Virus record (IMG/VR): IMGVR_UViG_3300037011_001068
Location: 32,001-96,000 of that record
DNA: 64,000 bases
From: a virus
Reading direction: 5' to 3' (one strand)
A program made the translations under genes and the position numbers. Positions 34,754 through 63,218 of the stretch are shown here, piece by piece; positions within the stretch are counted from its first letter, which is position 1, and the number at the start of each line of letters is the position of its first letter. Below the pieces are notes generated by a model that was given only the letters and a program-made list of their open reading frames with translations, had not been told where the DNA came from and did not search any database.

Positions 34754-35785
34754 ATGCCAGTTAACGTCGTCAAGACACCGCGCGATGAACGGCTGTGGGA
34801 CAAAGCAAAAAAGCAAGCGGAAAAGCAGGGGCACACGAAGGATTGGGCTTATGTGATGGGGATTTACCAGCACATGAAGGGGATCTCCAAAAGCGAAGAT
34901 CTCGGTAAGAGTATGGTTCTTCCACGGGCGGCAGAGTACCGCATTCCAGGTCAGGTGCCCACTCAGGCAGCGATTGCTTCCTTGGCCGGGCTCACAGCGA
35001 GGCCCGCGCCTATGAGTGAAGCGCGCTTCCTCGCGCAGAGTGGCCATCATTTTTCGGTCGATTCGGTGGTGCAGGGGCTCGGGTTGAATCTGCAGGGGCA
35101 AGCGTATTGGAAAAAAGCGCTTGAGGACATCATTTATGGAAGTAAAAATGAGCTTGTCCTCAAGCAGCGTTTGATCGAGAGGCTTATCCAAGAAAAGGCT
35201 GATCTCGGACTCCGGAAAGCGCTTTATGAGCGCGCGGTGATTCACTGGAAGGACACGATCCAGAAATCGCTTGTTCAGGTGGTGCCTGTGGAGGAGCTTC
35301 AGGGGGAGGTACTCGAGAAGGCGGAGCCGCGGGGCGGGCAATATCATAAGCGCATTCCTCGAGGAGACGGTGGGTACACATACATCTATGATCCAGCAAA
35401 ATACCAGGCGCGGAAGGATGCCCATGTGGACGGAAAAGAAGCGCGGAAGGGCCATATTATAAGGCATATTGAGAAGCGGGTGCGGCGTGCAGGAAAGAAT
35501 GGACTCCATATTTCGGAGCTCGCGGACTTGAGCACTAAGCATGGTGCGGATGCGGTCGCCGAGGTGCTGAAGGATCATTGTGACCGAGGTGTATTCGCGT
35601 TTGAGAAGGGGAGCGGGACTTTCACGCGAGCGCGCAATCGCTTTGTTGAGCGGCGGGGTCCGGTCGTGATCAATCTGGACAAAAAGAATCCCCGAAAGGG
35701 GAAAGGCGAGAAGCTACCGAAACCGACAACCAATTTGCCGGGGAGCAAGCCTGAAAATGCGAGCCAGTATAAACCGAAAATTTGA
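34754..35785 (+). CDS. putative virion-associated protein
   Basis: In the head cluster; several xK(S/A) motifs; LEKA followed by GGQYHKRIP..GGYTYIY. Confidence 0.55.
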   Translation: MPVNVVKTPRDERLWDKAKKQAEKQGHTKDWAYVMGIYQHMKGISKSEDLGKSMVLPRAAEYRIPGQVPTQAAIASLAGLTARPAPMSEARFLAQSGHHFSVDSVVQGLGLNLQGQAYWKKALEDIIYGSKNELVLKQRLIERLIQEKADLGLRKALYERAVIHWKDTIQKSLVQVVPVEELQGEVLEKAEPRGGQYHKRIPRGDGGYTYIYDPAKYQARKDAHVDGKEARKGHIIRHIEKRVRRAGKNGLHISELADLSTKHGADAVAEVLKDHCDRGVFAFEKGSGTFTRARNRFVERRGPVVINLDKKNPRKGKGEKLPKPTTNLPGSKPENASQYKPKI

Positions 35786-38700
35786 GAAGTTTGTCCTTGC
35801 CAAGTGGAAGCAGCAGATCCCCGGTGGTCGCTCGAGTGGCAAGACGCCAGAGGATTTCGACCGGGAGCAGCTCGACGCTGGCCGGAAGGTGGAGATGGAG
35901 CACACGCGGGACCCGAAGCTTGCTACCGAGATTGCGATGGATCACTTGGCCGAGGATAAGGACTACTACCGGAAGTTGAAGGTCATGGAAGCGAAAAAAT
36001 CGGAGGATTCTAGCTTGCAGGGTGCGCTTGAGCGCTCTCTCGCGCAGCCGGTGGAATTTCTGGATGGCTGGAGGGAGCTCGTGCCGGAGCTCGGGGCGGT
36101 GGTGTGGGGGGAATTCCAGAAGGCCTTCGGGCCGACAGCGGGAGCCGGGCCCGCGGCCGGGGGTGGAGCGCGGTCGCACAAGTATCTGAAGCGGGTTCCG
36201 TACAATTCCCCTGATGGGAAGCGTCATTATCGCTATTTTTACAAGGAGAGCGGTATGACGCGGGAGACGGAAGCCGGGAGCGATGTGAAGCTCGGGCAGG
36301 GCATGGTGCATGTTCAGGCGGTGACTCCGGAAGGTCACGTTACGGTACAGGAGGAGGGGCAAGAAGCGCGGCAAATCAAGAGCCACGAGTGGCATGAGAC
36401 GCTTGCGAAGCACTACGGGGAAGGCTATTTGAAGTCGGCCGAGAAGCGGGCCCGGCAGGTAATGAATGCGGTGCTCCGGCAGGTGCCGCGGAAGCTCCTC
36501 CAGGATCTTTTGGGCGAGACCGATGAAGCGCGGCTCGAGGATTTGAAGAAACGAGTGCCGGAGGTGTATCAGCGGCTCGATGAGTCTTTCAAGCGTGCAG
36601 GGATCTCTATTTTCCGGGCGAAGGAAATTCTGGGTGATGTTCTGCAGCGGCGGGGTTGGGAGCCGGATGCGCGGGCGGTAGTGATCGGGGCGGTGCTCAC
36701 TGAGCAGGGCGTTAAGGCGGCAAGTGGGTATCGGAGCACCATGCGGGCGGCCGAGAATTTGGCCGGCGACGGGCCGGTCCATGCTCAGCATGTCCAGGCG
36801 GCGCTTGAGCTCTGGGAATCCCCGGAGCCGAAGATTGAGGAACAGGCGACTCAAGAAGTAGGGCAGCTCCAGGCGCTCATGAAGGAGGCTTTCCAGGGAG
36901 GTGACCGGGCCAAAATAGCGGCGGTGCTCGCGCAGGCTTTGGCTTTTTCCTCGGAAGCTCTCCAGCAATTGTCCGCGGCAGGAATTGCTTACCCTGGCCT
37001 TTTGCAGGACCCGGTTATCAAAAAGGTGAGGGAAGCGCTCCTCCAGGTGCCGGCGGTAGCTCCGAAGGAAGCTCCCAGCTCGGATGGATCGGCGACGACG
37101 GTGTTCCTGGCTGGCGAGGGCGGGCAGGCGAAGGGCATGAAAGCCCACTACAAGCTCATGGAGGCCGAGGAAGCGATTGCCAGCCATGATCCCTCCAACG
37201 GGTTCAAGGTGAATTCCAAGTACCCTGAGGGTGTCCAGGAACGCGCGTATCACCGGGATTTTGGAGAACAGGATAAGGTGCGGCGAAATGCCAAGCGGCT
37301 TGAGCCGGCTTTTCTGGTTAACACGAATCCAGATGCGGTAAATGGGCCCCCGCTGATCACTCATGATGGGATAGTCCTCGGCGGGAACAGCAGGACCATG
37401 AGCATGCAGCTCGCTTACCAGGAGCAGCCGGACCGGGCCGAGGCTCTTAAAAAGTACCTCGGGGAGCACGCTCATGAGGTGGGTCTCCAAGCGGAGGATG
37501 TCCAGAAATTCAAGAATCCAATTTTGGTCCGTCAGCTTGAGCCTGCGAATTGGAGCAAGGAAGAGCTGCAATCGTTGGTCCGGAAGGCAAATGAATCTTT
37601 CACCCAGGCTATGGATCCGAGGGCGATGCAGGTAGCGCTCGCGAGAAAATTGGATGACAAGGCGGTGGAGGCGCTATCGAGCGCGATGAACGAGGAGGAG
37701 ACGCTTTCGGCGTTCCTTTCGAGCAAACGCGCAGAGCCTTTTCTAAAAAACCTCCGGCGAGTCGGTGTGATCGATGAGAGAAATGCTAATCAGTTTTTCT
37801 CTAGTAAAGGGGACAAACTGAACGAAGATGGAAAAACGCTCATCACGTGGATTCTGGTTGGGCGGATGGTGCCGGACGGGGACCTCCTGAATGAGACTCG
37901 CCCGAAGCTCATGGAGTCGGTCGCGCAGGCGGTTCCGAGCATGATCCACGCGATTGGGTTCGGCAAGGGTTATGACCTATCTGCATCTCTCCAGACGGCT
38001 ATTCATGCGTACAATCGGATTCAGGATAAGATCGACAATGGAATTTTGAAGCCGTTAGATCCGGGCATGAGTGACAAAGACGTGAAGGTGATTCTGGACA
38101 ACTATTTTTCGGATATGTTTGGCGAGAAGCACCCTATCCTTTCGGACGATCGCGCGCAGGAGCTCTTCAAGGTGTTCATTCGGAAGGCGGGCCCCAAGCA
38201 AATGGCCGGGGTGTTTCGAGAGTACGCGGACCTTGCTTCCAAAAATCCTGAAGGGCAGAAGCAGCTTTTGGGGGAGAATCTGTCTCCGGCTGAGGTGTTC
38301 AAGCGATCGATCGCTCTGGCATCGAAGAAGGAAAGCAAAGTGCAAAAGGCTTTATCTGGTGTACGCTTCATTTTAAAGAAGGCAGCGGGGCCTTTTATTG
38401 GCCCGCGCGGGGGCAAATGGGAAGATGCAGAGCACAAGATTTCCTGGAAGGATCGAGCGGATTATCACGATAGGGAAGTCCAGAAAATTAAACGGCGGTT
38501 GAGAGAGCGGCATGGTGGCGTTTTTTCCGAGTACGATGGATTGGGCGCGACAACCCCGAATAAATTGTTGATCGAGCGCGTTAAGCATAATGTCGCGGCA
38601 ATGGCAGCGAGGAATTATCAGCGGGAGCCAACAAAAGAAGAGGTGGATTCCGCTGTAAAAGAAGCCACTAAGAAATGGGCCCCGCATAATCGAAGACTCC

Positions 38701-41700
38701 ACGGGGTTGAAAAGAGCTTGACGAAGGCTGGTGGTCCTTATATTGGGCCCAAGGGTGGGAAGTGGGCGGACGTGAAGCATACCCAGCATTGGGATCCGGA
38801 CGCTCCCAAGAGTGAGAAGAAAATCTATGTAATCGACGCTACAAAGAAAAAGGAGGAGGCGAAGCCGGCGGAACCAGAGAAAAAGCCAGAGAAGAAAGAG
38901 GAGCTGAAGGGTGAGGAGAAGGGAAAGACTCGCCAGCAAATGCTTCTTTTTTCAAAGCCTACGGCGGCTAAGCCTAAGGAAGAGCCAAAGGTGCAGACTA
39001 TCCAGGAGAAGGCCGCGGAGCTCGGCGTGAAAGCTAAGGCGGCAGGCCTTCCGGGGAGCCCGGGAAAAGATGGGGAGCTTATGAAGCTTGTGGAGAAGCT
39101 ATCCAGCAAAGAAACCCAGGATGCTCTTGTCGCTTGGATGGGCGCGCATGAGAAGACCCCAGCGAAGTCTATAGAGAAGCCAAAGGAGGAACCTGAGAAG
39201 CCCAAAGAAGCCCCCGCGCCGGAACCGAAGGCGGAGGAGCCTGAGAAGCCGAAGTTCACGCTGGTCGCTCCCTCGGAGAAGGCGGAGGTGAAGGACAACA
39301 TGACGGCAGCGGACGAGAAGATCGCGCAAGAGGTTGGAGAGCACGTCTGGGGTGCGCGGAAAGATCTCTGGGTAGCGCGAACCTCTGCAGACCTTCAGAA
39401 GCTCACCCCAGAAGAGCAGAGCAAAATCTCGACTAAAAAGAATCTCCTTCCGAAATGGGAGACGGATACTTTGCTGGATGATGGGTGGGAGCCTGAAGCG
39501 ATCGTGATGCGGCACGCGATCGAGAGCCTTGTTCAGAATGCACCTGGGAATACTTTGGAAGCGCGACAAGCGTACATGGACGGCATTGATTTTTTGGCGA
39601 AGAGCTTGGAAGAGTGCAGGACGCTCGAGGATATCAAGGGCTTTCTGGCTGATTGGGAGCATCTCCTTTTGAGGCAACGACGTGAAGCTACCCTGTCTAT
39701 CGATGAGGCAGGGAAAGCGGTGGATGATTATTTTGAACATAAGCTAGGTAAGAAGCCTCCCAAAAATTACAAAGAGCGGAAGGAGCTTGATGATCGTTTT
39801 CGAGAGGCAAGAAGCAATAAATATCATGCGGCGTCTGTTGGGGACGCTGATTGGAATAAATGGCTTATTAAAGAGCAGGAAATTGATAAAGAGAGGCGGG
39901 AAGCTCTCGATAATCAAAAATTTCAGATTGATGACGTGGTGGCTTGGAAGCTTAATTTGCCCAAGCATGATCTCACTCTTCGGTTTGAGGAGAACGGGAT
40001 CACAACCGTTTATCGGGCAGATCCAGAAATTGCGAAAGGGAAGGATAATCCCTACGCGCTAATGGCGGCGGCGCTCGGGGAACGGGTTGTGAAAGGGCTA
40101 GTGCGTAAATATCAAATAACGCGGCCGAAAGCGCTCATGGATGCAGAGCGTAGGGTTCGGAAGATGCAGGAGCTCGGGAGCGAGGAAAAGGAAAAGGAGC
40201 TTTTCGAGCACCTTCAGCAAAAGCAGCGGAAGGGCGGCCAGAGAATGAAGCCCTTCAAGTGGGAGCGGAATGTCCCTGGGGAGGTGGATCGTAAAGGTGG
40301 AAAGCCTGTCACTGCGGCAGATCCAAAAGCGCTTGCTTCGGATTTCAAATTCAAAAACGTGCAATTCGGGAATTGGGTGAACGAACAAGATGCGGAAAGC
40401 CACCTAAAAGGGGCGCATGGAGCGCTCTTTGACTTGTCCGATGTGCTCGGGATTTCCCCAGAGGTGATTTCTTTGGGTGGTCGATTATCGATTGCCTTCG
40501 GTGCTCGAGGAAGTGGGAATGCTCTCGCGCACTACGAGACCATGGGAAAAATCATTAACCTCACGAAGATAAAGGGCTGCGGATCCCTCGCGCATGAGTG
40601 GGGTCATGCGCTCGATAATCTCTTGACCGTGATGGGTAACCCGCAAGGAACAGCGGCTCATCAATTTATCTCTGGCGGTGTGACAGCGGGTGTTCCTCAG
40701 GCGGTATCGGATGCCATGGAAGGGGTGATGGGGGCGATCCACTACAAGGATCCCTCGGTTCTTCAAAAGCGAAATAGAGCGCAGGATATGACGCAGCGGT
40801 GGGATTCTCTGAGCTACAAGGAGCGCCAGGAGCTCCGGCAGTTGCATAAAGAAATTGGGGCAGCCGAGCAGAGCCGTTATTTTCAAGACGCTTCCGTGTT
40901 TTCCAAGGCTCCGAATAGTTATTGGACGCGCCCGCACGAGCTTTTTGCGCGTGCTTTTGAGTCTTACGTGGAAGATACGCTTGTGGAAGCGAATCGAAAA
41001 TCAAGTTACTTGGTCTCCGGGACTCGGGATCCTTATGAGACTGGGCGGCACAGCGCGGCATCGGGGGAGGAACACGCGCAAACCTTTCCTCAAGGGGAGG
41101 AGCGCAAGGGCATCAACAAAGCAATCCAGAAATTGATCGGTGTGCTCAAGCAAGAGAAAGCGCTCGAGAAGGCCTTACAGGCGCTTGAGGCGCAAGAAAG
41201 GAACTGTGCTATGAGTAGGATACTTTCCATTGATGAGTACCTTGCGAAGGCCGAGCAGGGGCTTCCCAAGGGGGAGCCAGGGTTGACGGACAGCGAGAAG
41301 GACGGAGGTGAGCTCGCGGGAGTCGGCCAGGCGTCTGGAGCGACGAGCGGGAGCGCGGGGAGTGAAATCGGTGCGCCTGTCCCGAAGACCAAAAAGCTCT
41401 CCGAGGATGACGAGGAAGACGAGGAACAAATGAAGCCGGGCAAGAAGCCTCTGGAGGCCTCGGTGGGGAAGTCCATGGCGGTTCCCCAGCATCAGCGGGA
41501 TCTGGTAGCGCATGAGAACGCGCAGGTGGTCTCCCAGCTCCGGAAGGGCGAGGAGGATATCGTGGTCGGTATGGGGCAGGTGCTTCCGGAGGAGCTGGCG
41601 CCGGAGGGCGAGAAGACGAAATTCTGGACCCAGGGAGAAAAGGCCATGATCGTATACTCGAACGCGCTCGACATCCGGACCGAGAAGCTTCTGAAGGGGG

Positions 41701-41963
41701 ATGCCTTCTATGCGAATGGCGAGCCCTCGGTGGGCATGGGTAATGCACTCATGGCTTCTCATCGACGGTGCTCTCAGTGCGAGCGGATGCTTTTGAAGAG
41801 CCTTTCTGCGTGCCCACACTGTGGGTTTGGCGCGCAGCTCCTCGCGGTGCAGCCAATGGCATTTGAGGGCCGATCGCGAATCGAGAAGGGAATACATCCG
41901 TTGCAGCCGGCGCGGCATGAAGCGGATCTTGTGCTCCCTCAGGGGACCAAAGTGGCGAGGTGA
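35757..41963 (+). CDS. giant polyvalent protein (DUF5661-like, ddrB-like ParB, LPD5-like, HExxH metallopeptidase, LPD1); DarA/DdrB-like
   Basis: KVEMEH..IAMDHLAEDKDYY; ASHD...QERAY...GPPLI..GIVLGGNSR; GEHVWGARKDLW; VQFGNW...AFGARG..AHYE...AHEWGHALD; YW..PHELFARAFESYV. Confidence 0.8.
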   Translation: MRASINRKFEKFVLAKWKQQIPGGRSSGKTPEDFDREQLDAGRKVEMEHTRDPKLATEIAMDHLAEDKDYYRKLKVMEAKKSEDSSLQGALERSLAQPVEFLDGWRELVPELGAVVWGEFQKAFGPTAGAGPAAGGGARSHKYLKRVPYNSPDGKRHYRYFYKESGMTRETEAGSDVKLGQGMVHVQAVTPEGHVTVQEEGQEARQIKSHEWHETLAKHYGEGYLKSAEKRARQVMNAVLRQVPRKLLQDLLGETDEARLEDLKKRVPEVYQRLDESFKRAGISIFRAKEILGDVLQRRGWEPDARAVVIGAVLTEQGVKAASGYRSTMRAAENLAGDGPVHAQHVQAALELWESPEPKIEEQATQEVGQLQALMKEAFQGGDRAKIAAVLAQALAFSSEALQQLSAAGIAYPGLLQDPVIKKVREALLQVPAVAPKEAPSSDGSATTVFLAGEGGQAKGMKAHYKLMEAEEAIASHDPSNGFKVNSKYPEGVQERAYHRDFGEQDKVRRNAKRLEPAFLVNTNPDAVNGPPLITHDGIVLGGNSRTMSMQLAYQEQPDRAEALKKYLGEHAHEVGLQAEDVQKFKNPILVRQLEPANWSKEELQSLVRKANESFTQAMDPRAMQVALARKLDDKAVEALSSAMNEEETLSAFLSSKRAEPFLKNLRRVGVIDERNANQFFSSKGDKLNEDGKTLITWILVGRMVPDGDLLNETRPKLMESVAQAVPSMIHAIGFGKGYDLSASLQTAIHAYNRIQDKIDNGILKPLDPGMSDKDVKVILDNYFSDMFGEKHPILSDDRAQELFKVFIRKAGPKQMAGVFREYADLASKNPEGQKQLLGENLSPAEVFKRSIALASKKESKVQKALSGVRFILKKAAGPFIGPRGGKWEDAEHKISWKDRADYHDREVQKIKRRLRERHGGVFSEYDGLGATTPNKLLIERVKHNVAAMAARNYQREPTKEEVDSAVKEATKKWAPHNRRLHGVEKSLTKAGGPYIGPKGGKWADVKHTQHWDPDAPKSEKKIYVIDATKKKEEAKPAEPEKKPEKKEELKGEEKGKTRQQMLLFSKPTAAKPKEEPKVQTIQEKAAELGVKAKAAGLPGSPGKDGELMKLVEKLSSKETQDALVAWMGAHEKTPAKSIEKPKEEPEKPKEAPAPEPKAEEPEKPKFTLVAPSEKAEVKDNMTAADEKIAQEVGEHVWGARKDLWVARTSADLQKLTPEEQSKISTKKNLLPKWETDTLLDDGWEPEAIVMRHAIESLVQNAPGNTLEARQAYMDGIDFLAKSLEECRTLEDIKGFLADWEHLLLRQRREATLSIDEAGKAVDDYFEHKLGKKPPKNYKERKELDDRFREARSNKYHAASVGDADWNKWLIKEQEIDKERREALDNQKFQIDDVVAWKLNLPKHDLTLRFEENGITTVYRADPEIAKGKDNPYALMAAALGERVVKGLVRKYQITRPKALMDAERRVRKMQELGSEEKEKELFEHLQQKQRKGGQRMKPFKWERNVPGEVDRKGGKPVTAADPKALASDFKFKNVQFGNWVNEQDAESHLKGAHGALFDLSDVLGISPEVISLGGRLSIAFGARGSGNALAHYETMGKIINLTKIKGCGSLAHEWGHALDNLLTVMGNPQGTAAHQFISGGVTAGVPQAVSDAMEGVMGAIHYKDPSVLQKRNRAQDMTQRWDSLSYKERQELRQLHKEIGAAEQSRYFQDASVFSKAPNSYWTRPHELFARAFESYVEDTLVEANRKSSYLVSGTRDPYETGRHSAASGEEHAQTFPQGEERKGINKAIQKLIGVLKQEKALEKALQALEAQERNCAMSRILSIDEYLAKAEQGLPKGEPGLTDSEKDGGELAGVGQASGATSGSAGSEIGAPVPKTKKLSEDDEEDEEQMKPGKKPLEASVGKSMAVPQHQRDLVAHENAQVVSQLRKGEEDIVVGMGQVLPEELAPEGEKTKFWTQGEKAMIVYSNALDIRTEKLLKGDAFYANGEPSVGMGNALMASHRRCSQCERMLLKSLSACPHCGFGAQLLAVQPMAFEGRSRIEKGIHPLQPARHEADLVLPQGTKVAR

Positions 41964-43744
41964 TAAGCATGAGCTTTTTCGAGGACTTCACGGGGTTCGG
42001 GCTGACCACGCTCGGGGCCCTGGGTGGCATGGTGCAGGAGTGGGCGCAAGGCGCGTTATTAAAAGGTCCGGAAGGATCGGATGAAGAAGAAAAGCGCAGC
42101 TCGCAAGGCTCGGATACTGCCCCCGGCGGTAAGCGAGCGGACAGCGCGGAGTCAAATCCTGTTCCAGAGGAGAAGGCCTCAAGCGACCCAAAGGCGCTTT
42201 TTTGGGATCCCTTCGCGATTATTGAGCAGTTGGGCTACAAGGACAGGCCTTCGCAAATCAGCTATGGAACGCTGAAAGCGATGGCCTGGAAAACCCCTAT
42301 CGCGCACGCGGTCATCCAGACACGGGTGAATCAAATTTCTGGATTTAGTCATGTGCAACATGATCGGTATCAGATGGGTTTTCGGATTAAAACCCGTGAG
42401 ACTGAGAAAGAGCCCACGAAGGCGGAGCGAAAATGGATCCAGCAAATGGAATCTGTGATATTGCGGACAGGTGTCACGGATCATCCGAGGGGGCGAGACG
42501 GCTTCAAAGAGTTTCTCAAAAAAGTTACCTGGGATTCCCTTGTGTACGATCAAATGTGCTTTGAAATCGTGCAGAATCGCAAAGGGCAGCCGGCGGAGTG
42601 GTATGCGGTGGACGGTGCCACCATTCGGCGGGCCGACACGGCGAGTACCTTCACGGACGAGGATCATACGAAGGCTATCCGGTATGTGCAGATCTACGAC
42701 GGACTTGTAATCGCGGAGTACACTCAGGATGAACTATGTTTCGCAATTCGGAATCCCAGGACGGATATTCGGCTTTTTGGGTATGGCATTTCTGAGCTTG
42801 AAATGCTTGTGCCGGCGGTAACCTGTATCCTCTATGCCTGGGAGTACAATCAGCGTTTTTTCAGCCAGGGGTCAGCGGCGAAGGGAATCATTAACTTCAA
42901 GGGTGCGGTTCCAGAAAAGCAACTGCAGTCTTTTCGCCGCCACTGGTATCAAATGATTTCAGGCGTTGAAAATGCATGGAGAACGCCTGTCACAAATGCC
43001 GAGGATCTCCAGTACATTAATCTCCAGCAATCCAGCCGGGACATGGAGTACAATTCTTGGATGGATTTTTTGATCAAGGTGGTTTGCGCGATGTATGCCA
43101 TGGATCCGGCAGAGCTCAATTTCAAGTACGGGAACGTTGGGCAGCGTGGAGGGCTTCAGGAGAGCTCCAATCGGGAGAAAATTACGGAGAGCAAAGAGCG
43201 GGGTCTCAGGCCGCTTCTCCGGTTCATCGCGGATGCCATCAATTTGCACCTTATCTGGCCCATCAACGAAAATTTTGAATTTGATTTTGTGGGCCTGGAC
43301 GCGCAAACCAAGGATGAAATGGCCGAGCTTTCTGCAAAGCAGGTGCGCGTATATAAAACTGTGGATGAGATTCGCGCGCAGGACGATCTTCCTCCACTTC
43401 CGGATGGCCTCGGAGAAGTGCTGCTCGACCCCACGTGGTATCAGTACGCTCAGCAAAAGCAGGCGCAGGCGCAGCAAGCAGAGAACCCCCAGGGACAAAT
43501 GGGGGAAGGTGAGCCAGAGGGCGGAGCTCCTGGCGGGGAGCAGGGCGGTGAAGAGCAGGGAGGGGGAATGGACTTCAAAAAGCTCCTCCAGCAGTACGGG
43601 CAAGGCGGGGGAGAGAAGCCGGAGGGCGGGAGCAAGAATGCGGTAGAGCCTGCGAAGCCTGCGGTTCCGGCTAAGGCAGCAGCTCCTCAAGTAGCGAAGA
43701 GCTTCGGGCAAGGCAAGAAAATTTTTATCGATCTAACCCTGTGA
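41960..43744 (+). CDS. portal protein
   Basis: DSLVYDQMCFEIV, AVDGATI, GYGISELE, YNQRFFSQG, DMEYNSW, SKERGLRPLL, TVDEIRA. Confidence 0.92.
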   Translation: MISMSFFEDFTGFGLTTLGALGGMVQEWAQGALLKGPEGSDEEEKRSSQGSDTAPGGKRADSAESNPVPEEKASSDPKALFWDPFAIIEQLGYKDRPSQISYGTLKAMAWKTPIAHAVIQTRVNQISGFSHVQHDRYQMGFRIKTRETEKEPTKAERKWIQQMESVILRTGVTDHPRGRDGFKEFLKKVTWDSLVYDQMCFEIVQNRKGQPAEWYAVDGATIRRADTASTFTDEDHTKAIRYVQIYDGLVIAEYTQDELCFAIRNPRTDIRLFGYGISELEMLVPAVTCILYAWEYNQRFFSQGSAAKGIINFKGAVPEKQLQSFRRHWYQMISGVENAWRTPVTNAEDLQYINLQQSSRDMEYNSWMDFLIKVVCAMYAMDPAELNFKYGNVGQRGGLQESSNREKITESKERGLRPLLRFIADAINLHLIWPINENFEFDFVGLDAQTKDEMAELSAKQVRVYKTVDEIRAQDDLPPLPDGLGEVLLDPTWYQYAQQKQAQAQQAENPQGQMGEGEPEGGAPGGEQGGEEQGGGMDFKKLLQQYGQGGGEKPEGGSKNAVEPAKPAVPAKAAAPQVAKSFGQGKKIFIDLTL

Positions 43745-43751: not shown

Positions 43752-44138
43752 ATGCGAATCAAGGATAAAGTGAACATCCGCATTGCGAAAGAAGCTGAAT
43801 TTAAGAACATTTTATTCGGCCCGGACGATGCGCTTGCTGAGCGGGTGGTGGACTCGTGGGCAAGATACGCTTCAGGAAATCTTTCCATCGACGCCGGGGA
43901 GACTGAATCTCTCTCCTTTGGGGATGTGACCACGGTCAAGGGGATGTACCTGGAGGTGACCGGGGAATGCCAGCTCGTGATCAATGGAGCGGATCCCATC
44001 CAACTGCGAAAGAGCGGGACGGATGCGGCTCTGATTGCGAAAGTCTTTATCGAGGCGGATATCTCTTCGGTTACGCTCACGGCTCCCCTTACGGTAGCGG
44101 TGACGGGGATCTATTGCTTTTGGGGCGATAGTGTTTGA
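43752..44138 (+). CDS. small beta-rich hypothetical (possibly structural) protein
   Basis: GAGGA RBS; directly follows the portal gene. Confidence 0.55.
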   Translation: MRIKDKVNIRIAKEAEFKNILFGPDDALAERVVDSWARYASGNLSIDAGETESLSFGDVTTVKGMYLEVTGECQLVINGADPIQLRKSGTDAALIAKVFIEADISSVTLTAPLTVAVTGIYCFWGDSV

Positions 44139-55900: not shown

Positions 55901-58900
55901 TGCTCCGGATAACTTTGAGACCATGCCGGAAGGGTTGCCTACTGAATTTAAACCAAATAAATGGAAAAATTCTCAAAAAATAGTAAATGCTCTTTTGCTC
56001 GCTCCTCTTGATACTAAGCTTGAAACGAGTAAGTATATCGCTACGCTTGTTCCTACACTGGGTGGAGGAAATGTTTGGTATATAAAATATAAAGATGCTG
56101 CTTACGGAGAGGATGTTACAAGTTCCCATTCTTCGATGGCATGGGATATTTCTATTCTTAAAGAACCTATGAAAGTTATTCTTCCGGAAAAAGTAGAAGA
56201 GCTTCCTGAATTGAAGACCATGGAAGAAAAACAAAATTTTTGGAAAGATCAACCATGGGGTGGAACGTTGGAAGTTTGGTCTGTAAATCCTTCTGGAGAT
56301 CTTTTTTCTTATGCACCGCTCGGGACCGCTATTGCCGCTCCAAAGCCGGGGGATGCTTCAGGCATGGCTTTAACAATTTGGCATAAAGGTAAAGGTGACC
56401 ACTGGTATACTATAGGTTATGCAATAAGCTCACAGGCACTTTCTACACTACTCCAACCTATTGTAAAAGCAAAAAAGAAGGCTCTCATCCTAAAAGGAGC
56501 TCCTGCTATTGCTGGCCTTATTAAAGATTGGCCCAATATTCAGAACATCACGCAAGACATTCCAATCAAGAATCCCTCGAAAATATTTCCAGGATTTTTG
56601 AGTGTAGCTCCTTTGGGAGCTCGCCTTACTTCTTATAAGCTCTCTACTGGCGGGAAAGTGGAGAGTCAGATGTTTGTAAAAGAAGATGGGGAAAATTGGA
56701 AAAATATCTTTACGCAAGATATTATAAATAACTATTTTGTAACTCAGCTCATGAATACGCAGGATGAAGTTTTTATTTATCTAGGAGGTATTCCTGGGAG
56801 CACTCCAAAGCCAACAATAAAAAAACTTGTACCTAAGCTCGTGCATGCCAAGGATGCAATAAAAATGCATGAGGCAATCAAAGCTTCAGGTGGTACGCTC
56901 AAGATCAAACCTAACTCCACTGATTCAACGGTGGCCTATGTTTGTTTGGACAACGTGATAGAGGGAGATGCGGCAAAAATACTGAATTCTGCGCTTTTGG
57001 AATTAAACCTTTCCCAGCATGTCTTGAATTTTCAGCAGTATCCTAAAACGAATAAATTCGGTGCTTTTGTGGCGATTCCTTTTTCCCATCTAGAAAATCC
57101 CGTGGAGATACAGGTGGAGGAGGGTGAACAAGTTCCTTCTGAACCGCCTGATCAAGTGGAGGAAAAGCCCCAGAAAAAAAAGCCTAAGAAGCTCTCCAAA
57201 AAAGAAATCCAGAAAATGGCTGCAGCAAAGCAAAAAATCGAAGAGCAGAAGGTATGGGCAATAGCGCACCCGACGGTGAAGGATCCAGAAACCTTCCTTC
57301 TCCTCGCGCACTTCCAGAAGCACATGGATAAGTGGTTTTCTGAAAGTCCCTGGTATGCGCGGGTGGAAAACGAAGGGGAGACCATCTTCCTGCAGCCGAA
57401 GAGCTTCCCTGAAGATTTTCCGGCGGTCATGAAAAAGCAGTTCCCTCTTGCGGAACAGGTGGAGACCATCCATGGGCCCATGATGCGGGTCTCTCTCCAG
57501 TCGCTCCGGGATCGCTATCCCGAGGCGCTCCCCGTAAAAGGCCCGGATGGTAAGCTCTATCCTGTGGGGACCACTTTCCAGACTGAAAAGACTTCGGTGA
57601 CCGTGGGGGACCTTTTAAAAACCGAGCCTGGATTCCATAGCATGGTCCCGCATACCTCTATGCCGGATTACATGGTGCTCAAAGTGGCTGGAACGGGAGC
57701 GAGCCAAAAAGAGCAGCTACATGCTATCGTCCAGAAATTTGGGTTACACCCACTTTTCACAGAGCCGAAACAAACATCGAGCTCCTGGATGCATTATTTT
57801 CTCAAGAAAGAGATCGATAATTCATGGAAAGAGGAGGAGAAGCTCGTGGTGCTCCCTGGGGAATCCCCCTCTCCCCTTCGCCTGGCTCCTTTGCCCTCGG
57901 GGACGACCACCACGGAGCATTGGGGGGAAGTGGGGGATAATCGTGCGGAGCTCGGGTTGTTGGAAGCTGTGAAAATTCCTTTGTACGGACACGTAATTCG
58001 GATTGGCAAACCGGGGATACTGACAGATTTTCAGGTGAACATCCGAAAAGTGAAGACCCTTTCAGGGGATCTTGTTTACGAGGTGACAGGAGATCTTCTC
58101 GAGTTCAAGGCTCAGTCCAGCAAATTGAATCCTACCTCTAGTATTCCTCTGACTTCGGCAGCTTCGCAATTGTTCGCGCCTTTGGGAAAATTAAAGACCA
58201 TTGAATACGATGCAGAGACCGGGGTGCATGACGAAAGCAAGAGCCCTGGGGAGATCATGAGCCTCTCTGGTTTTCAAGGAACCGTGCGTGATGGAAAAAC
58301 CGTGGTCCAGGTGATTCAAGATCCTTCTCAGCAAACCATGAATGGCACTTTCAAGGTGCGAATCCCGGTGGGGGATAATGTGGAGGAAGCACTCGGCGAA
58401 GCTTTTGAAGCGATGGGTTACAACGCCGCGGAGGCACTCTCCCCTATCGATGAAAAAAGCGATCGGATTTTTAAAAAGTGGTCTATCCTTCGCTCGACAT
58501 TAGGACCATTGGCTTTTGGGCAGTCCGATGCTGCTATACCACGGAAGCAGCGGCATGATGAGAAGTACCTGGATACACAACTTGATAAACTCGGCGTCCA
58601 GAAATTGGTTCCTACCGCGAAGGTACAGCGGATTTTTCAAAGCAAAGTCACGGTAACGGTAGCGGGTGAAGAGCATTTCAAGGAGCATTGGTCTTGCCCT
58701 TATGTGGGAACAAAATTTCCTTCCGTCATAATTCAGCTCGCGCAGGGTGCTGGGTGGGCAAGTCGAAAAGAGCGTTATCTGAAGGGTGTAGATACGGATG
58801 GAAAAAGTAAAGGTGAGGATTTTCAGACTGGCGGGGCTGCGGGTGTTTTTTGCCGTATCGCTGGGTCACAGGCAAAGATCAATCCAGCGTATGCTTATAA

Positions 58901-59273
58901 TGTAGTATTCCATCCTCGCTTGTTTAGACGAACAGACTGGTATCACTATAATGATGATCATTTTGGCGTGATTGCTCCTAATACCTTCAACACCATGGGT
59001 CCGCAGAAGGGAAGGTTGAGTGCAGGACCTATCACTAGCGTAGGAAATGAGATCATCTTTCAAGGGGGTATGGACATTCGAGATATCGTAGGAATCATGT
59101 GTACGAGCCCTGAATCGGCAACTTCTTTGAAAGAGAAGCTTATCAGCATGGGAATAACAGAGATCAATGGGGCTTCATTAGATGCTGCAATTAAGTACAT
59201 TCCGCCGTATGAAACAACAGGCAGCAAATTTTTAAAGGTATTTCACATCAAAGAAGATCCAGAGGAGGCATGA
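52923..59273 (+). CDS. giant polyvalent protein with a HipA/PI3-4-kinase-like domain, tandem small domains and a possible C-terminal ART-like domain
   Basis: GSHG...WIFK...AEEAA...DWLLANHDSHAGQFL...IAIDKG kinase motifs; three NFETMPE linkers. Confidence 0.7.
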   Translation: MLATQLTAPKWVHTSFQKAGVKTKPMKLGLGSWKGLSIIAIGPKGGRIIGYGRFHKAIYAGSAIAEHLVALREEAAASKKWTPSTEIQKLVEWLTELGIDGKAFKDRVEVEEDAGKLLGQSFSVYGNTEPGKKLSFKVAELLPHIGEPLKPAENEALSYAAEVASGQFQEEKLFPDLKTLEPVPLEGVYAKYAGSHGNKLFRDPEERLWIFKAANPIIARAEEAANRVGRHILGDKFPPAKYVQLGGKDGVLIGEMLGEVWQESSAMHSHPPLNLLKEHRLEVLQHEILDWLLANHDSHAGQFLSHEGELIAIDKGQAWKWIGEDTFHPGFKGQNPSDPIYKKFWEQVKSGKISSEGFVEAALEVIERWRQIPVEQFRSIVAPYVVTLAGGTHKEPEEIAKKLEARFLSLAKDVEGFLSGQLGQVVSFGGVQPIEPTTETLPSPLKLAPSPKEPELPIQAIPKPPLAGPLSVAIEPSSALSVASQWPITKGNEKGKVTVTSPGVKPPASWPAGIPGAGFMQDIVYKKEAYKLSIFEKGGKVSFLIQYPDGTSNTWPSINQAGDSLYLYANKLPISMGAKDKKEKGISLGSKVFRFEQFKAELEAAYGMPSVAVESPPSKAKSIKPLAESITVQTPKELEQANIIEPGQKNLPFYEVAEKLPAWEEVDPSVMPPEVQELIDQMDASITSYPDVWDAAIFPGKVVKILLNTTGKPGFLIGDVKQGKPVYHIYKQDPQGNYTIGSPMNAEIYDTGFDLYSKLGSKGLEEEPYDPLKVLMEGPKAGKEKPSEDNFETMPEKEAQPIQFSGKTANEHMKVAVALPAGTIITLTPAKWPDVPTVNFVKNEKGSWHPFDTATQAPLEKEIFSSNMIGVIVNSMLKNGGLVVHSMGAIKKPAPSNFETMPESVYQPKAGVPKLADIESAEEGAEIKLQTEGQDAPTVFTKTQGEWWVLNPGANKHEKVTFSEVFLADVLDTASQNSNITVKGMSLGQEKKPAPDNFETMPEGLPTEFKPNKWKNSQKIVNALLLAPLDTKLETSKYIATLVPTLGGGNVWYIKYKDAAYGEDVTSSHSSMAWDISILKEPMKVILPEKVEELPELKTMEEKQNFWKDQPWGGTLEVWSVNPSGDLFSYAPLGTAIAAPKPGDASGMALTIWHKGKGDHWYTIGYAISSQALSTLLQPIVKAKKKALILKGAPAIAGLIKDWPNIQNITQDIPIKNPSKIFPGFLSVAPLGARLTSYKLSTGGKVESQMFVKEDGENWKNIFTQDIINNYFVTQLMNTQDEVFIYLGGIPGSTPKPTIKKLVPKLVHAKDAIKMHEAIKASGGTLKIKPNSTDSTVAYVCLDNVIEGDAAKILNSALLELNLSQHVLNFQQYPKTNKFGAFVAIPFSHLENPVEIQVEEGEQVPSEPPDQVEEKPQKKKPKKLSKKEIQKMAAAKQKIEEQKVWAIAHPTVKDPETFLLLAHFQKHMDKWFSESPWYARVENEGETIFLQPKSFPEDFPAVMKKQFPLAEQVETIHGPMMRVSLQSLRDRYPEALPVKGPDGKLYPVGTTFQTEKTSVTVGDLLKTEPGFHSMVPHTSMPDYMVLKVAGTGASQKEQLHAIVQKFGLHPLFTEPKQTSSSWMHYFLKKEIDNSWKEEEKLVVLPGESPSPLRLAPLPSGTTTTEHWGEVGDNRAELGLLEAVKIPLYGHVIRIGKPGILTDFQVNIRKVKTLSGDLVYEVTGDLLEFKAQSSKLNPTSSIPLTSAASQLFAPLGKLKTIEYDAETGVHDESKSPGEIMSLSGFQGTVRDGKTVVQVIQDPSQQTMNGTFKVRIPVGDNVEEALGEAFEAMGYNAAEALSPIDEKSDRIFKKWSILRSTLGPLAFGQSDAAIPRKQRHDEKYLDTQLDKLGVQKLVPTAKVQRIFQSKVTVTVAGEEHFKEHWSCPYVGTKFPSVIIQLAQGAGWASRKERYLKGVDTDGKSKGEDFQTGGAAGVFCRIAGSQAKINPAYAYNVVFHPRLFRRTDWYHYNDDHFGVIAPNTFNTMGPQKGRLSAGPITSVGNEIIFQGGMDIRDIVGIMCTSPESATSLKEKLISMGITEINGASLDAAIKYIPPYETTGSKFLKVFHIKEDPEEA

Positions 59274-59608: not shown

Positions 59609-59811
59609 GATGCCCTCATTGTAAAAATCATGTGCTTCAGAAGAGCGGAGAGCGCACAAAACTGCGGATCCAGGGCCCCGTATTTTTCGATCGGCAGGGG
59701 AAGTGCAAAGCTACCTGTTTCTGGTGCAAAAGTGAAGTGGAGCTTCCCCTTCGGCTGCTCGGGGGAGTGCCTATCGAGAGCGAGACCTTTTTGCTTCCGA
59801 CAAGAGGTTGA
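59605..59811 (+). CDS. zinc-ribbon protein
   Basis: MRCPHC...CFWCK. Confidence 0.65.
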   Translation: MRCPHCKNHVLQKSGERTKLRIQGPVFFDRQGKCKATCFWCKSEVELPLRLLGGVPIESETFLLPTRG

Positions 59812-59836
59812 CAGATTTCTGGACCTTTTTTATTCT
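59808..59836 (+). promoter_or_regulatory. putative promoter for the protease-scaffold-capsid operon
   Basis: TTGACA-N17-TATTCT; the spacer contains GATTTCTGGA, the reverse form of the recurrent motif. Confidence 0.55.
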
Positions 59837-59945
59837 AAGGGCAGATTAAGGAATAGCTGTACGGTTGGCCCGGGTAGGATCCGTGAGGGATCGGTAGGGG
59901 CAAGCGATAGTATCGTTTGCCCCTTTGCCGTTTCGAGGTGGAAAA

Positions 59946-60803
59946 ATGGAAGGTGAGCTCCCGTTCGATGTCGAATTTCCCTTCTCCGTTTTTGAAAAAG
60001 CGGATGAAGAGCCAGGGAAGAGAAAACGAATCGGCGGTATTGCCTCGATCGAGACCCGGGACCGGCAGGAGGAGACCGTTCTTCAGAGAGGTTTGGATTT
60101 TTCAGATTTCGCGAAAAATGGTTGGTTCAACGATAATCACTCCAAAGATACCGCGGGAGTCGTAGGATATCCCGATGGATCTACTGAATTTTTTCGCAAA
60201 GGTCAGCGATTACCTAGCGGAGAAATCGCGAAAGCTTCCGGGCATTGGGTGGAGGGTTATTTGCTGGATACTCCGCGGGCCAATGCGATCTGGGAGCTCG
60301 GAAAAGCACTCCAGAAAACGCAACGTCGGCTTGGTCTTTCGGTGGAGGGAAAAATTCTGCAAAGAACCGGGCCACAGTTAAAGACGATTGCGAAGGCCCT
60401 GGTCCGAAATGTGGCTATCACGAATTGCCCCGTAAATACTTCCGCGCGCATGGAAATTCTGGCTAAGAGCCTTAAAGCCGCGGAGCAATGCGAAAGCGAT
60501 CTGGCCAAGACCCTGGGTATGGGTGTTCCAGCAATTGGGGCTGGGGGCGGAGTGGTTCCACCGGCCAGCATGGGGCCTCAAACGGGTATGGGTGCAGGGC
60601 AGGTGATTGCCCGGGAATCGCTCGAGAGCAAGCAGCACCCGCCAAAGAAGATCGGAAAGAAAAAAAAGATTAAATTCCGGAAGTCTTTTTCGCATATCGA
60701 AGCGATCCATTGGCTTCGCGCTCAACTTCCGCATGCTTCGGCGGAACAAATCGAGCGCTTGCTAGAAACCACCCGGCGACTAAAAAGCGCTGGAAAACTG
60801 TAA
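59946..60803 (+). CDS. prohead protease
   Basis: IGGIASIETRDRQEE, FNDNH, VGYP, LGLSVEG, NVAITNCPVN (SPO1-like protease pattern). Confidence 0.88.
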   Translation: MEGELPFDVEFPFSVFEKADEEPGKRKRIGGIASIETRDRQEETVLQRGLDFSDFAKNGWFNDNHSKDTAGVVGYPDGSTEFFRKGQRLPSGEIAKASGHWVEGYLLDTPRANAIWELGKALQKTQRRLGLSVEGKILQRTGPQLKTIAKALVRNVAITNCPVNTSARMEILAKSLKAAEQCESDLAKTLGMGVPAIGAGGGVVPPASMGPQTGMGAGQVIARESLESKQHPPKKIGKKKKIKFRKSFSHIEAIHWLRAQLPHASAEQIERLLETTRRLKSAGKL

Positions 60804-60813
60804 GGAGCGCCGA

Positions 60814-61725
60814 ATGAAAAATCAAAAACCGAATTCTGAAGAGAAAAACAGGCCTGGATTTCCGCCCCCCGGTGCGCCGAGCCCAATGACCAAGGCCAAA
60901 AAATCGAATGGAGAAGAGGGGGACGAAGGCAGGGGTGAAGAGGAAGACGAGGAGGACGAGGACGAGGAGGGCGATGGTGGGGAGGAAGACGAGAACGAAG
61001 CTGAAAAAGGCTGCACGAAAAGCCTTTCTCGTGAGGACCTCGAGAAGAGCCTAAGCCGCTTGAACGAGCTCGCGACAGAAGATGATCCGGCGGCGAGGAA
61101 AGAGGTGCTGCTCAAAAAAGCCCTTATCGAGGAGCTTTCCAAGGGAGAGCAGGAGGAGCTTCATCAGATTCTCGGGGGTGTCACTGAGCCGACCTCGAGT
61201 CGCCTGTCTGATGATGTTCGGAAGGGTTTTGGCGAAAATGAGACCCTGCAGAAGGCTCTTGACGTGAGCGACTACCTCCAGGAGAACAATAACGAGCTTC
61301 TGAAGAGCTTGGATACCTTGTCCAAGGCGATCGAAGCTTCGGACAGCCGGCAGCACGAATTCAACCTCGTGCTTGCCAAGGCAGTCTCAGACATCGGACG
61401 CGCTACCATGGCCATGAGCTCGAGGCTCGGTGTGATCGAGGCACAGCCGGCGAGGGCTCCGAAGTCTCGGGGCATTCACGCGCCTCTCGAGAAAGGATTC
61501 CAGGGTTCGGATCGCGCTCCCGACGGTTTGTCGAAATCTGAAATTCTGGATGCGCTGGAAGAGATGGCCGAAGATAGCATTAACAAAGGCCTCGGCGGCG
61601 TGATGGAAGATGGGGGAGATATTGCGCTTGCGATCAGCAAGTATGAACAATTCAACATGATCTCCCCAAGCCTCTTGAAGACGGTTCAGGGTCATATTCA
61701 GTCAAGGCGAGCCTCTGCCCACTAG
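60814..61725 (+). CDS. capsid scaffold-like protein
   Basis: Acidic and coiled-coil; lies between protease and capsid; about 15 xxK(A/S/G) motifs. Confidence 0.7.
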   Translation: MKNQKPNSEEKNRPGFPPPGAPSPMTKAKKSNGEEGDEGRGEEEDEEDEDEEGDGGEEDENEAEKGCTKSLSREDLEKSLSRLNELATEDDPAARKEVLLKKALIEELSKGEQEELHQILGGVTEPTSSRLSDDVRKGFGENETLQKALDVSDYLQENNNELLKSLDTLSKAIEASDSRQHEFNLVLAKAVSDIGRATMAMSSRLGVIEAQPARAPKSRGIHAPLEKGFQGSDRAPDGLSKSEILDALEEMAEDSINKGLGGVMEDGGDIALAISKYEQFNMISPSLLKTVQGHIQSRRASAH

Positions 61726-61784: not shown

Positions 61785-63218
61785 ATGTTTGGGAATGCAA
61801 ACATGGTGTCCTGGAAGGACTACGAGGGAGTAGAAGGATTCCAGGTTGGATCTCAGCAAGAAGTCGATCAGCTCAACAAAGCTCTGGCGGCCGGCCAAAG
61901 CATCAATCCCCCGGGGAGTGCCACCGCGGGAGATGGTTTCAGTTTACGCGTGGAAAGTTTGGAACGTACACTTAAGGTGACTACGTTCAAAATGGAACAC
62001 ATCAAATTCTGGAAACAAATTCCCAAGCTCGCAGCTTGGAACACAGTGGAAGAACACAATGCTCTGCATTCATACGGTCAAAATCCTGATGCCGGGTTTA
62101 TCGCGGAAGGCGATCTTCCGGGTGAAGACGACTCGACCTATGAAAGGCAGTTCGCAATCATCAAGTTTTTGGGGACCACACGCCGAGTGACTCACCCCAT
62201 GAGCTTGATCAAGCCGGCTCACGGAAATGTCATTTCAATGGAAACCGTGAATGGCACGATCCACTTGCTGCGGATCCTAGAACGGGCGCTTTTCTTTGGT
62301 GATAGCGCACTGTGCGCTTTGCAGTTCGATGGATATGCGAAACAGCTTCAGGCGAAGAGCAACGTGATCGATCTTCGAGGACAACCGCTGAGTGAAGACG
62401 TTCTCACCGATTCCTGCTTGACCGCGTTTGATGCCCCCAATTACGGCATGATCACTGATATCTATCTCAATCCGAAGGTCAAAGCAGACCTCGTGAAGAC
62501 GTTCTTCCCGAAGGAACGCCATCCAACCAACGTTGGGGACATGAGCAAAGTCGGCTTGGACATTAAGGGGTTCACTTCCCCCGCCGGCGATGTGATGTTT
62601 CAGCCGGATGTGTTCATTACGGATGGTGGCGGCGTGACCACAGCAGTCGGCGACGCAACCAAACGGCCAGCAACCCCGACCATCTCCACTCCTTGCACAA
62701 CCCCTGGTCCGGAGGCTCTCTCGAAATTTGGCGCCTTAGATGCTGGCGATTATCGTCTCCAGATCCAGGCCTGCAATCGCTATGGGCGAAGCGCCCCGGT
62801 AGCGGTGGATGCAGGCGCGGTGACCATCGGAGCAGCCGAAAAATTCACCTTCGGCGCGACCCCCGGTGGATCTACCACGGTTGAATGGTGGGAGCTTTTC
62901 CGAACAAAAAAAAACGGCGCGCTGGGGACCGAGCGTTTGGTTCTCCGGGTCGCTAATGCGGCCGGCGCAGCGGAAAGTATCATCTCTGAATACAACGACC
63001 AGATCCCCGGGTGCTACTATGGCTTTGGGTTCCAGCTCAATCTGGAAAACTTGTCATTCAAGCAACTTGCGCCTATGGTAAAAATACCACTGGCGACAAT
63101 AGACAGCAGTATCAGGTGGATGCAGCTTCTCTATGGGGTGCCTGTTCTTTACACTCCTGGAAAGAACATCCTTTTCAAGAACATAGGGCGGGCTCTCGGC
63201 TACGTCGGCAACCCCTGA
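61785..63218 (+). CDS. major capsid protein (SPO1/Herelleviridae-like)
   Basis: LNKA, LRVESLERTLK, TVEEH, IKFLGTTRRV, ERALFFGD, LQFDG, IDLRG, LAPMVKIPLA. Confidence 0.92.
   Translation: MFGNANMVSWKDYEGVEGFQVGSQQEVDQLNKALAAGQSINPPGSATAGDGFSLRVESLERTLKVTTFKMEHIKFWKQIPKLAAWNTVEEHNALHSYGQNPDAGFIAEGDLPGEDDSTYERQFAIIKFLGTTRRVTHPMSLIKPAHGNVISMETVNGTIHLLRILERALFFGDSALCALQFDGYAKQLQAKSNVIDLRGQPLSEDVLTDSCLTAFDAPNYGMITDIYLNPKVKADLVKTFFPKERHPTNVGDMSKVGLDIKGFTSPAGDVMFQPDVFITDGGGVTTAVGDATKRPATPTISTPCTTPGPEALSKFGALDAGDYRLQIQACNRYGRSAPVAVDAGAVTIGAAEKFTFGATPGGSTTVEWWELFRTKKNGALGTERLVLRVANAAGAAESIISEYNDQIPGCYYGFGFQLNLENLSFKQLAPMVKIPLATIDSSIRWMQLLYGVPVLYTPGKNILFKNIGRALGYVGNP

Follow-up and report, generated by a model that had tools for sequence, protein, structure and literature searches.

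The window analysed here is a stretch of 64,000 nucleotides, bases 32001-96000 of the IMG/VR virus record IMGVR_UViG_3300037011_001068, which is 105,756 bp long and estimated to be 98% complete. It contains a phage head module whose plus strand encodes, in this order, the large terminase, a protein of 343 amino acids (aa), a 2068-aa protein, the portal protein, a 128-aa protein, a 1136-aa SNF2 protein, a 1510-aa protein, a 2116-aa protein, a 112-aa protein, the prohead protease, the scaffold protein and the major capsid protein (Table 1). In this uncultivated phage the module combines SPO1/A511-like portal, protease and capsid genes with genes for five large polyvalent-type cargo proteins. Homologues of the Herelleviridae-type portal, prohead protease and major capsid protein are all present: the capsid protein is 25-40% identical to capsid proteins of that family, and the protease resembles A511 gp84, with a weak S78 match. 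We describe a cassette that recurs in the large proteins, made of a putative prohead-protease site, hydrophobic-x-K↓[AGS] (the arrow marks the presumed cut), and a conserved peptide of about 20 residues behind it, here called the tag.

Table 1 Features of the head module in window coordinates; predicted fragments are given in residues of the protein named.
Feature	Position	Strand	Remarks
Large terminase, intein-interrupted	32128-34689	+	Terminase_6N and Terminase_6C matches
343-aa protein	34754-35785	+	directly after terminase; kept in 16 related loci
Variant tag 2 after LEK↓A	35312-35395	+	in 343-aa protein; PRGGxYHKRIP...G.Y.Y.Y
2068-aa polyvalent protein	35757-41963	+	DUF5661, DdrB-like ParB, two tags, zincin motif, LPD1, C-terminal zinc ribbon
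Variant tag 2 after FQK↓A	36114-36248	+	N-terminal part of 2068-aa protein; HKYLKRVPY...GKRHYRYFY
Site LKK↓A and tag copy A	38373-38447	+	in 2068-aa protein
Site LTK↓A and tag copy B	38718-38792	+	in 2068-aa protein; second site VEK↓S four residues upstream
Predicted fragment, 2068-aa protein	residues 1-875		DUF5661, tag 2, DdrB-ParB
Predicted fragment, 2068-aa protein	residues 876-990		small module
Predicted fragment, 2068-aa protein	residues 991-2068		long Lys/Glu/Pro linker, zincin, LPD1, zinc ribbon
Portal protein	41960-43744	+	Phage_portal; 594 residues; ~42% identity to SPO1-like Bacillus phage portals
128-aa protein without family match	43752-44138	+	directly after portal; same place in 22 related loci
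1136-aa protein	44152-47562	+	helical N-terminal segment, site and tag, SNF2 helicase core (residues 444-813), low-complexity tail
Site LEK↓A and tag copy C	44422-44496	+	in 1136-aa SNF2 protein
Predicted fragments, 1136-aa protein	short N-terminal pieces, then residues 94-1136		94-1136, SNF2 helicase
1510-aa protein	47939-52471	+	possible MuF-like N-terminal part, InPase, site and tag, Cys-motif segment, variant tag 3, PolyA_pol/CCA-type nucleotidyltransferase
Site LEK↓A and tag copy D	49472-49546	+	in 1510-aa protein; second site FQK↓S 11 residues upstream
Variant tag 3 after LEK↓A	50771-50890	+	in 1510-aa protein; IGVHGGKIIGWGR...PIYLG
Predicted fragment, 1510-aa protein	residues 1-514		possible MuF-like part and InPase
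Predicted fragment, 1510-aa protein	residues 515-947		Cys-motif segment
Predicted fragment, 1510-aa protein	residues 948-1510		nucleotidyltransferase
2116-aa protein without recognised domain	52923-59273	+	homologues at same position in related phages
FQK↓A, then variant tag 3	52968-53108	+	N-terminus of 2116-aa protein; AIGPKGGRIIGYGR...AIYAG
Prohead protease	59946-60803	+	phrog_1028; 31% identity to A511 gp84
Scaffold protein	60814-61725	+	303 residues; 12 site motifs
Major capsid protein	61785-63218	+	phrog_752; sole site motif LNK↓A at 61872-61883

A regular-expression scan combined with a profile search found exactly four copies of the pattern GP[FY]IGP[RK]GGxW(A/E)D..H...W, distributed over three head-module genes and each lying just behind L-x-K-A, all of them where an earlier reading of the sequence alone (the sequence-only reading) had placed them. 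A profile of the four copies returned no further significant copy in the six frames of the window, and its application to the whole genome added one weak match (E 0.03) within the terminase. This tag-like stretch (GGPAIAPYHGRF...HHEEW), at 32290-32358 in the N-terminal part of the terminase, is probably a chance match, and we did not accept it as a real copy. The DNA of the four copies differs at most third-codon positions and the residues are kept, which points to selection on the protein and rules out recent duplication or conservation of a DNA-level signal.

Across 267 distinct copies the consensus of this tag 1 is G-P-[YF]-I-G-P-[RK]-G-G-K-W-A-D-[PA]-x-H-[TK]-I-P-W-[K]-[E], with most positions 85-100% conserved. 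AlphaFold2 modelling from 137 aligned copies gave a pLDDT of ~90 for the tag and ~69 for the site region, and predicts that the 20 residues form a compact hairpin-like unit; a Foldseek comparison of the model with the PDB returned no structural relative. The four tag segments had no Pfam match at E<=10, and a full-text literature search with characteristic tag strings brought up irrelevant matches only.

Searches of large protein collections showed that the tag is common outside the window. A search by word index through 5.8 billion proteins brought up 187 relatives, and an exhaustive profile search of 1.84 billion cluster representatives (50% identity) gave at least 808 at E<=1e-3, 589 of them at E<=1e-10. 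The best 120 proteins hold 275 copies, mostly two to five per protein. IMG/VR contains 136 stretches that encode the tag; at 71 of the 74 loci fetched from it, a homologue of the window's portal, terminase, protease or capsid protein is encoded no more than 10 kb away, with few exceptions on the same strand. In the cases examined, the tag-bearing genes stand between those for terminase and protease/capsid. Each of five complete genomes of 107-110 kb has all its tags in a single cluster just upstream of its sole protease homologue. Phages with strongly diverged capsid and portal proteins still share 70-80% identity in the tag. A survey of 185,579 species-representative prokaryotic genomes turned it up on only three contigs of metagenome-assembled genomes (MAGs), from which no host could be assigned. 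The sequence-only reading had allowed that the peptide might turn out to belong mainly to non-virion proteins; the proximity to head genes at nearly all loci and the mere three MAG contigs speak otherwise. The tag therefore appears, from these sequence comparisons, to be confined to the head modules of one phage lineage with SPO1/A511-like head genes, and to be a widespread unnamed element absent from Pfam, isolate phages and the literature searched. One of the MAG contigs, CAWAEN010000015.1 (469 kb, Acidimicrobiia), carries a single copy (L081:3093-3173) less than 11 kb from its end; this could represent a prophage or a mis-join, and is the sole host lead.

To characterize the site we counted the motif [LIVFM]xK[AGS] and took expectations from shuffled sequences. 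The window scaffold has 12 such motifs against 1.4 expected (P<0.0005), fewer than the roughly 15 of the sequence-only reading, and the window protease has 7 against 1.7, among them the FEKA, LAKS and FRKS already pointed out there. The 343-aa protein has 6 against 2.0; no excess is seen in the portal, terminase or capsid protein. Thirteen scaffolds of the clade together hold 133 sites against 15.2 expected (z 31), a ~9-fold enrichment. Control motifs in the same scaffolds (the reversed motif, Arg or Glu in place of Lys, an acidic or amide P1' residue, shifted spacing) stay near expectation, and helical periodicity is thereby ruled out as the source. Proteases of the clade hold 70 sites against 14 expected, ~5-fold, and terminases 24 against 32.

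Comparison with A511 ties this motif to capsid maturation. The GenBank record of A511 annotates the mature capsid protein Cps from Ser24, behind ...ALK, so that its mat_peptide boundary is K23↓S24. The window capsid protein contains a single match to the site motif, the LNK↓A near its N-terminus (residues 30-33) noted in the sequence-only reading, and this match shares an alignment column with A511 K23↓S24. Clade capsids conserve (D/E)L(N/R)K↓AL at this place in 11 of 12 sequences. When the proteases are aligned, the window's FEK↓A falls on LEK↓S of A511 gp84 and its LAK↓S on FMK↓S, at both ends of the catalytic domain. Because of the A511 capsid alignment, the enrichment in scaffolds and proteases and the purging of the motif downstream of tags described below, hydrophobic-x-K↓[AGS] is very probably the prohead-protease site, as the sequence-only reading had supposed from the motifs.

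Site and tag are tightly coupled. Of the 267 tags, 91% have [LIVFM]xK[AGS] with its P1' residue 2-9 residues before the tag's aromatic residue, compared with 6% expected from the density of the site motif in the same proteins. P3 of these sites is Leu in 70%, and P1' is Ala in 60%, Gly in 24% and Ser in 16%. The spacing takes values of 2, 3, 4, 5, 6 and 7 and occasionally 9-17 residues, and such variability suggests that site and tag are distinct elements. In about 40% of cases the tag has another site 10-20 residues further upstream.

The distribution of sites around 446 distinct tags shows opposite selection on the two sides of the tag. The ten residues before it average 0.98 sites per tag, the ten before those 0.34, and the 40 residues behind it have essentially none, the background being 5-7 per 1000 residues. 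From +20 to +100, 73 sites were counted where 166 were expected (z ~-7.5, composition controlled by shuffling), and from +100 to +180 sites are at expectation. Control motifs downstream of the tag are unchanged or reduced by only ~25%. Low-complexity composition explains this depletion in part only: hydrophobic-x-K in general falls by ~25%, the site motif by 56%. The site is thus selected before the tag and counter-selected between tag and cargo, which is what would be expected of a real cleavage site whose product keeps the tag.

Clade-wide comparison bears out the idea that the tag is a common prefix of unrelated cargo modules. Of 201 related proteins, 55 open with a tag near the N-terminus; 53 of these have a leader of 3-25 residues ending in K[AGS], and two start directly with the tag, so neither leader nor L-x-K is needed for its fold. 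Fewer than 60 residues remain behind the last tag in only 2 of 120 proteins. The median remainder is 354 residues, distances between tags are typically 140-425 residues and hence domain-sized, and recognised Pfam domains sit between tags. The tag-bearing proteins are extremely mosaic in architecture, their cargo comprising S-adenosylmethionine (SAM) lyase, DarA_C, DdrB-ParB, ART-PolyVal, Zeta toxin/AAA_33, RelA/SpoT, GGDEF, GNAT, phosphatases, topoisomerase IB, SNF2, InPase and LPD1. These domains match those of head-packaged or polyvalent proteins (PMC5512222; PMC9024508). Inteins (PF14890/PF13403) also lie inside tagged polyvalent proteins of relatives, e.g. P0054 and P0105.

Both large head-module proteins that lack tag 1, the 343-aa and the 2116-aa protein, carry variant tags behind the same kind of site. 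The motif of tag 2 stands behind [LF]xK[AGS] in 20 of the 201 related proteins, and neither of the two tag-2 segments of the window matched any of 50,697 isolate phage records (tblastn). The N-terminal FQK↓A and tag 3 of the 2116-aa protein are kept in its homologues at three related loci (L014, L030 and L055). All three types have a common core, (I)GP[KR]GG[KR]-aromatic/aliphatic or PRGGK-aromatic, and may be diverged versions of one hairpin element, a proposal based on motif similarity and not on statistically supported homology.

The large proteins of the window have two hallmarks of polyvalent proteins. At least two unrelated effector domains stand on one polypeptide (DUF5661, DdrB-ParB, zincin and LPD1 in the 2068-aa protein, InPase and nucleotidyltransferase in the 1510-aa protein), with SNF2 in a third protein, and their genes flank the portal gene among packaging and late structural genes, between the terminase and the protease, scaffold and capsid genes. 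Of the "~20 kb of enzymes" claimed in the sequence-only reading, the 2068-, 1136- and 1510-aa proteins do contain enzyme domains; the figure also includes the 2116-aa protein, which has no recognisable one. The 343-aa protein is fused to tagged polyvalent open reading frames (ORFs) in some related loci.

The zincin motif of the 2068-aa protein is HEWGH, with a CLCA_X-like match, and the predicted fragment that holds it also contains a long Lys/Glu/Pro linker. DUF5661 (window 35859-35996; P0004 residues 583-647; L063:9227-9424) repeatedly stops right at a junction of site or of site plus tag, and may be a pro-domain or targeting domain of the tag system. A match to phrog_595 (E 3.8e-6) covers residues 190-327 of the 1510-aa protein, which carry CxxC...HPNCQC. 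A MuF-like nature of its N-terminal part is possible; there was no Pfam match at E<=0.5, such as to Phage_Mu_F, and a BLASTP comparison with SPP1 gp7 gave no significant result. For the 2116-aa protein, Pfam, PHROG, NCBIfam and PDB sequences yielded no match, and its ESM Atlas scores, all <0.9, give no more than a hint of a "head morphogenesis protein". It contains no L.K[AGS] motif, compared with 3.7 expected (P 0.017), as might be expected if the protein has to come through the protease uncut once its short leader is lost.

Several neighbouring features deserve mention. The terminase intein (Intein_splicing and LAGLIDADG_3 matches, residues 144-387) lies between Terminase_6N and Terminase_6C. 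Portal ORFs are 900-1030 residues long in the relatives L019, L055 and L066, as against 594 in the window, which suggests fusion of the portal to extra domains. A gap of ~340 bp separates the 112-aa gene from the protease start (59609-59945). The 108-aa ORF within it (59630-59956) has a translation rich in Cys, Arg and Ser that does not resemble a protein, and it is unlikely to be a gene; the ATG at 59946 is a more likely protease start than the TTG at 59925.

From the motifs, their linkage and distribution and the signatures of selection we infer cleavage, packaging and a partner for the tag, in the following way. The explanation that we hold to be rather probable is that the prohead protease cuts the polyproteins at site-plus-tag cassettes, and that the tag stays on the packaged fragments and docks inside the head. 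The precursors would be built into the procapsid, where the prohead protease would remove the first 32 residues of the capsid protein, shred the scaffold and trim itself. The same enzyme would cut the sites before each tag, and so release from the polyproteins a DdrB-ParB part, a zincin/LPD1 part, the SNF2 helicase, an InPase part and a nucleotidyltransferase part as separate enzymes, every fragment bearing the tag at its new N-terminus. Most likely the retained tag would dock on a conserved component inside the head, such as the inner face of the capsid, the portal or the core. Docking would hold the released fragment and perhaps order its exit with the DNA. Packaging of the tagged proteins into the head is plausible, and the 128-aa protein behind the portal, a conserved component of head modules, is a candidate partner of the tag.

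For loading, a single signal in each polyprotein would be enough; that each module nonetheless has its own tag, which it would keep, suggests a function for each fragment after cleavage. Candidate roles are retention on a conserved inner surface of the head, ordered exit through portal and tail, and a role in the infected cell. The sequence-only reading had also considered DNA binding. The tag is approximately neutral in charge and the linker behind it is only slightly Lys-rich (11.2% Lys versus 9.1%), and this lends little support to direct DNA binding.

A number of observations weigh against cleavage and docking as set out above. Tag 1 was not found by tblastn in the 50,697 isolate phage records, Herelleviridae included. 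The site motif had been thought to mark domain boundaries throughout the giant proteins, and it is indeed concentrated beside the tags in the SNF2 and InPase proteins; over their full length it is not enriched in either (8 versus 6.9 and 7 versus 6.6 expected). Mature capsid proteins of the clade are not depleted in sites (27 versus 16.9 expected); since they keep the motif, context would have to decide which sites are cut. One capsid protein of the clade has N where the others have Lys, and the A511 site is A-L-K↓S, whose P3 residue is not hydrophobic in the same register. The spacing of site and tag is mostly 3-4 residues, so that L-x-K could partly belong to the fold of the tag, and the very high conservation of the tag across divergent phages also fits a host or DNA target.

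The last two points also bear on two alternatives, both of which we regard as unlikely. The tag and upstream L-x-K could form a small structural or interaction module between the domains of polyvalent proteins that remain uncut, as does the N4 virion RNA polymerase. A purely structural role does not predict that the motif is purged from the 80 residues behind the tag, nor does it account for the same motif marking the homologous capsid maturation site and being enriched 9-fold in scaffolds with specific controls. It would suit the compact motif predicted by AlphaFold2 and the predominant spacing; the full range of 2-17 residues and the two proteins that start at the tag without L-x-K suit it less. 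Some polyvalent proteins are known to arrive unprocessed (PMC5512222), as such a module would require.

Alternatively, cleavage and packaging could proceed as we propose and the tag could act after injection, by binding a host component or the incoming DNA and so localising the effectors. This has about the same small probability. Retention of the tag on the cargo and its presence on every module where a single loading signal per polyprotein would be enough agree with such a role, as does an identity of 70-80% despite strong divergence of capsid and portal, which would suit a partner that does not co-evolve with them. Its restriction to the head-module genes of one head-gene lineage is harder to reconcile with it, the tag has no similarity to known host-hub binding motifs, and neither its net charge of about zero nor the slightly basic linker favours a DNA target.

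Considerably less probable is that the junctions are cut by the polyvalent proteins' own zincin metallopeptidase, following the model of Iyer et al. 2017, in which an MPTase was proposed as the processing enzyme (PMC5512222). The 2068-aa protein would itself provide such an enzyme, with its HEWGH motif, CLCA_X-like match and LPD1. However, CLCA_X-like/MPTase-PolyVal domains were undetected in two of the five complete tag-bearing genomes and a prohead protease is present in all five, and the junction motif is common to capsid, scaffold and protease, which makes the prohead protease the more economical candidate. That the stretch is kept at the DNA level as a recombination joint for swapping cargo cassettes among phages is hardly credible, in spite of the highly mosaic architectures and the position of tags at module boundaries, since the four copies vary without constraint at third-codon positions and encode conserved amino acids.

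Processing by the prohead protease, followed by docking of the tagged fragments, would have consequences beyond this genome. Proteins injected by phages decide the first minutes of infection, through anti-restriction and host takeover, and to our knowledge the loading of diverse enzymes into heads is understood only for T4 and, in part, for P1. Hundreds of enzyme modules that are unrelated to one another carry the cassette of a site and a 20-residue tag in this abundant clade of environmental phages, so that candidates for injected effectors can be listed directly from metagenomes; among those seen are SAM lyases, Zeta-toxin kinases, RelA/SpoT, GGDEF, ADP-ribosyltransferases, topoisomerase IB and SNF2 helicases. 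We tentatively raise the broader possibility that the tag and its two variants are a plug-and-play cargo signal of a large uncultivated clade, which the prohead protease would expose and which would then dock enzymes at a conserved site inside the head (capsid inner face or portal) and govern their retention and ordered ejection. Acquiring a site and a tag would in that case turn any enzyme cassette into an injected effector, and phages would have an equivalent of encapsulin loading peptides that is linked to polyprotein processing. The tag might serve as a portable label for loading foreign proteins into capsids. What is new relative to the literature is a defined sequence element on polyvalent or protease-processed, capsid-targeted cargo, together with the proposal that the prohead protease and not an in-built zincin splits polyvalent proteins. 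The element makes the model experimentally testable, and the purging of sites between tag and cargo makes the hypothesis directly so.

Among known systems, the internal proteins of T4, which are packed in the head and injected, have a leader that ends in the prohead-protease consensus; gp21 cuts after Glu in (L/I)xE and the leader is discarded, so that the cargo retains no common sequence. As in T4, a short leader and a putative protease consensus precede diverse cargo here, and the consensus also occurs in scaffold and capsid, its enrichment being the signature seen with (L/I)xE in the T4 scaffold and internal proteins. A leader ending in the consensus precedes 53 of the 55 N-terminal tags. 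Unlike in T4, the P1 residue is Lys and not the Glu of a gp21-type protease, several cargos are strung in one polyprotein, and a conserved tag lies behind the site and would be left on every fragment. The sequence-only reading had likened the tag to the T4 capsid-targeting sequence; that signal is a cut-off leader, whereas the tag here would stay on its cargo, and by analogy it is the short leader before the site, not the tag, that would be the closer counterpart. Encapsulin cargo-loading peptides are mostly C-terminal and direct enzymes inside an HK97-fold shell with no link to proteolysis or injection. The likeness to them is one of concept only, a single short conserved peptide on unrelated enzymes; the sequences are unrelated and a functional parallel is speculative. 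A511 and other Herelleviridae have homologous portal, protease and capsid proteins, and the A511 capsid maturation site, with Lys before a small residue, aligns with the putative one of the window. The A511 genes for portal, protease, scaffold and capsid follow one another without interruption, and the scaffold has only 2 site motifs.

Polyvalent proteins have been described as giant multi-domain proteins whose genes adjoin those for portal and terminase, and for which packaging, injection and proteolytic splitting into units were predicted (Iyer, Burroughs, Anand, de Souza, Aravind 2017, PMC5512222). LPD1, DdrB-ParB, InPase, ART-PolyVal, DarA, RelA/SpoT, SNF2 and zincin domains are common to both sets. 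There, processing was ascribed to the proteins' own MPTase, and neither a 20-residue tag nor a prohead-protease site was described as a delimiter of modules (PMC5512222). The prohead protease of phiKZ and SPN3US cuts many head-internal proteins, some at several sites, and the fragments stay in the head and are then ejected (PMC5694885, PMC10052503). Their consensus, (S/A/G)-x-E, is a different one with no conserved peptide behind it, and most of the cargo is non-enzymatic or uncharacterized. The Dar system of P1 (DarA, DarB, DdrA, DdrB, Hdf, Ulx) consists of head-internal anti-restriction proteins, of which DarA is processed and DarB is targeted to the capsid by as few as its 30 N-terminal residues (PMC9024508). 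DdrB-ParB and DarA_C are homologous to cargo in the window and its relatives; the P1 proteins are separate, are loaded stepwise, have no repeated shared tag and belong to another head-gene lineage. Virions of the Thermus phage Lalka27a contain a 1715-aa helicase encoded among structural genes (bioRxiv 10.64898/2026.04.20.719267), and this helicase and the P1 Dar proteins (PMC9024508) are the closest experimental parallels to the tagged proteins described here.

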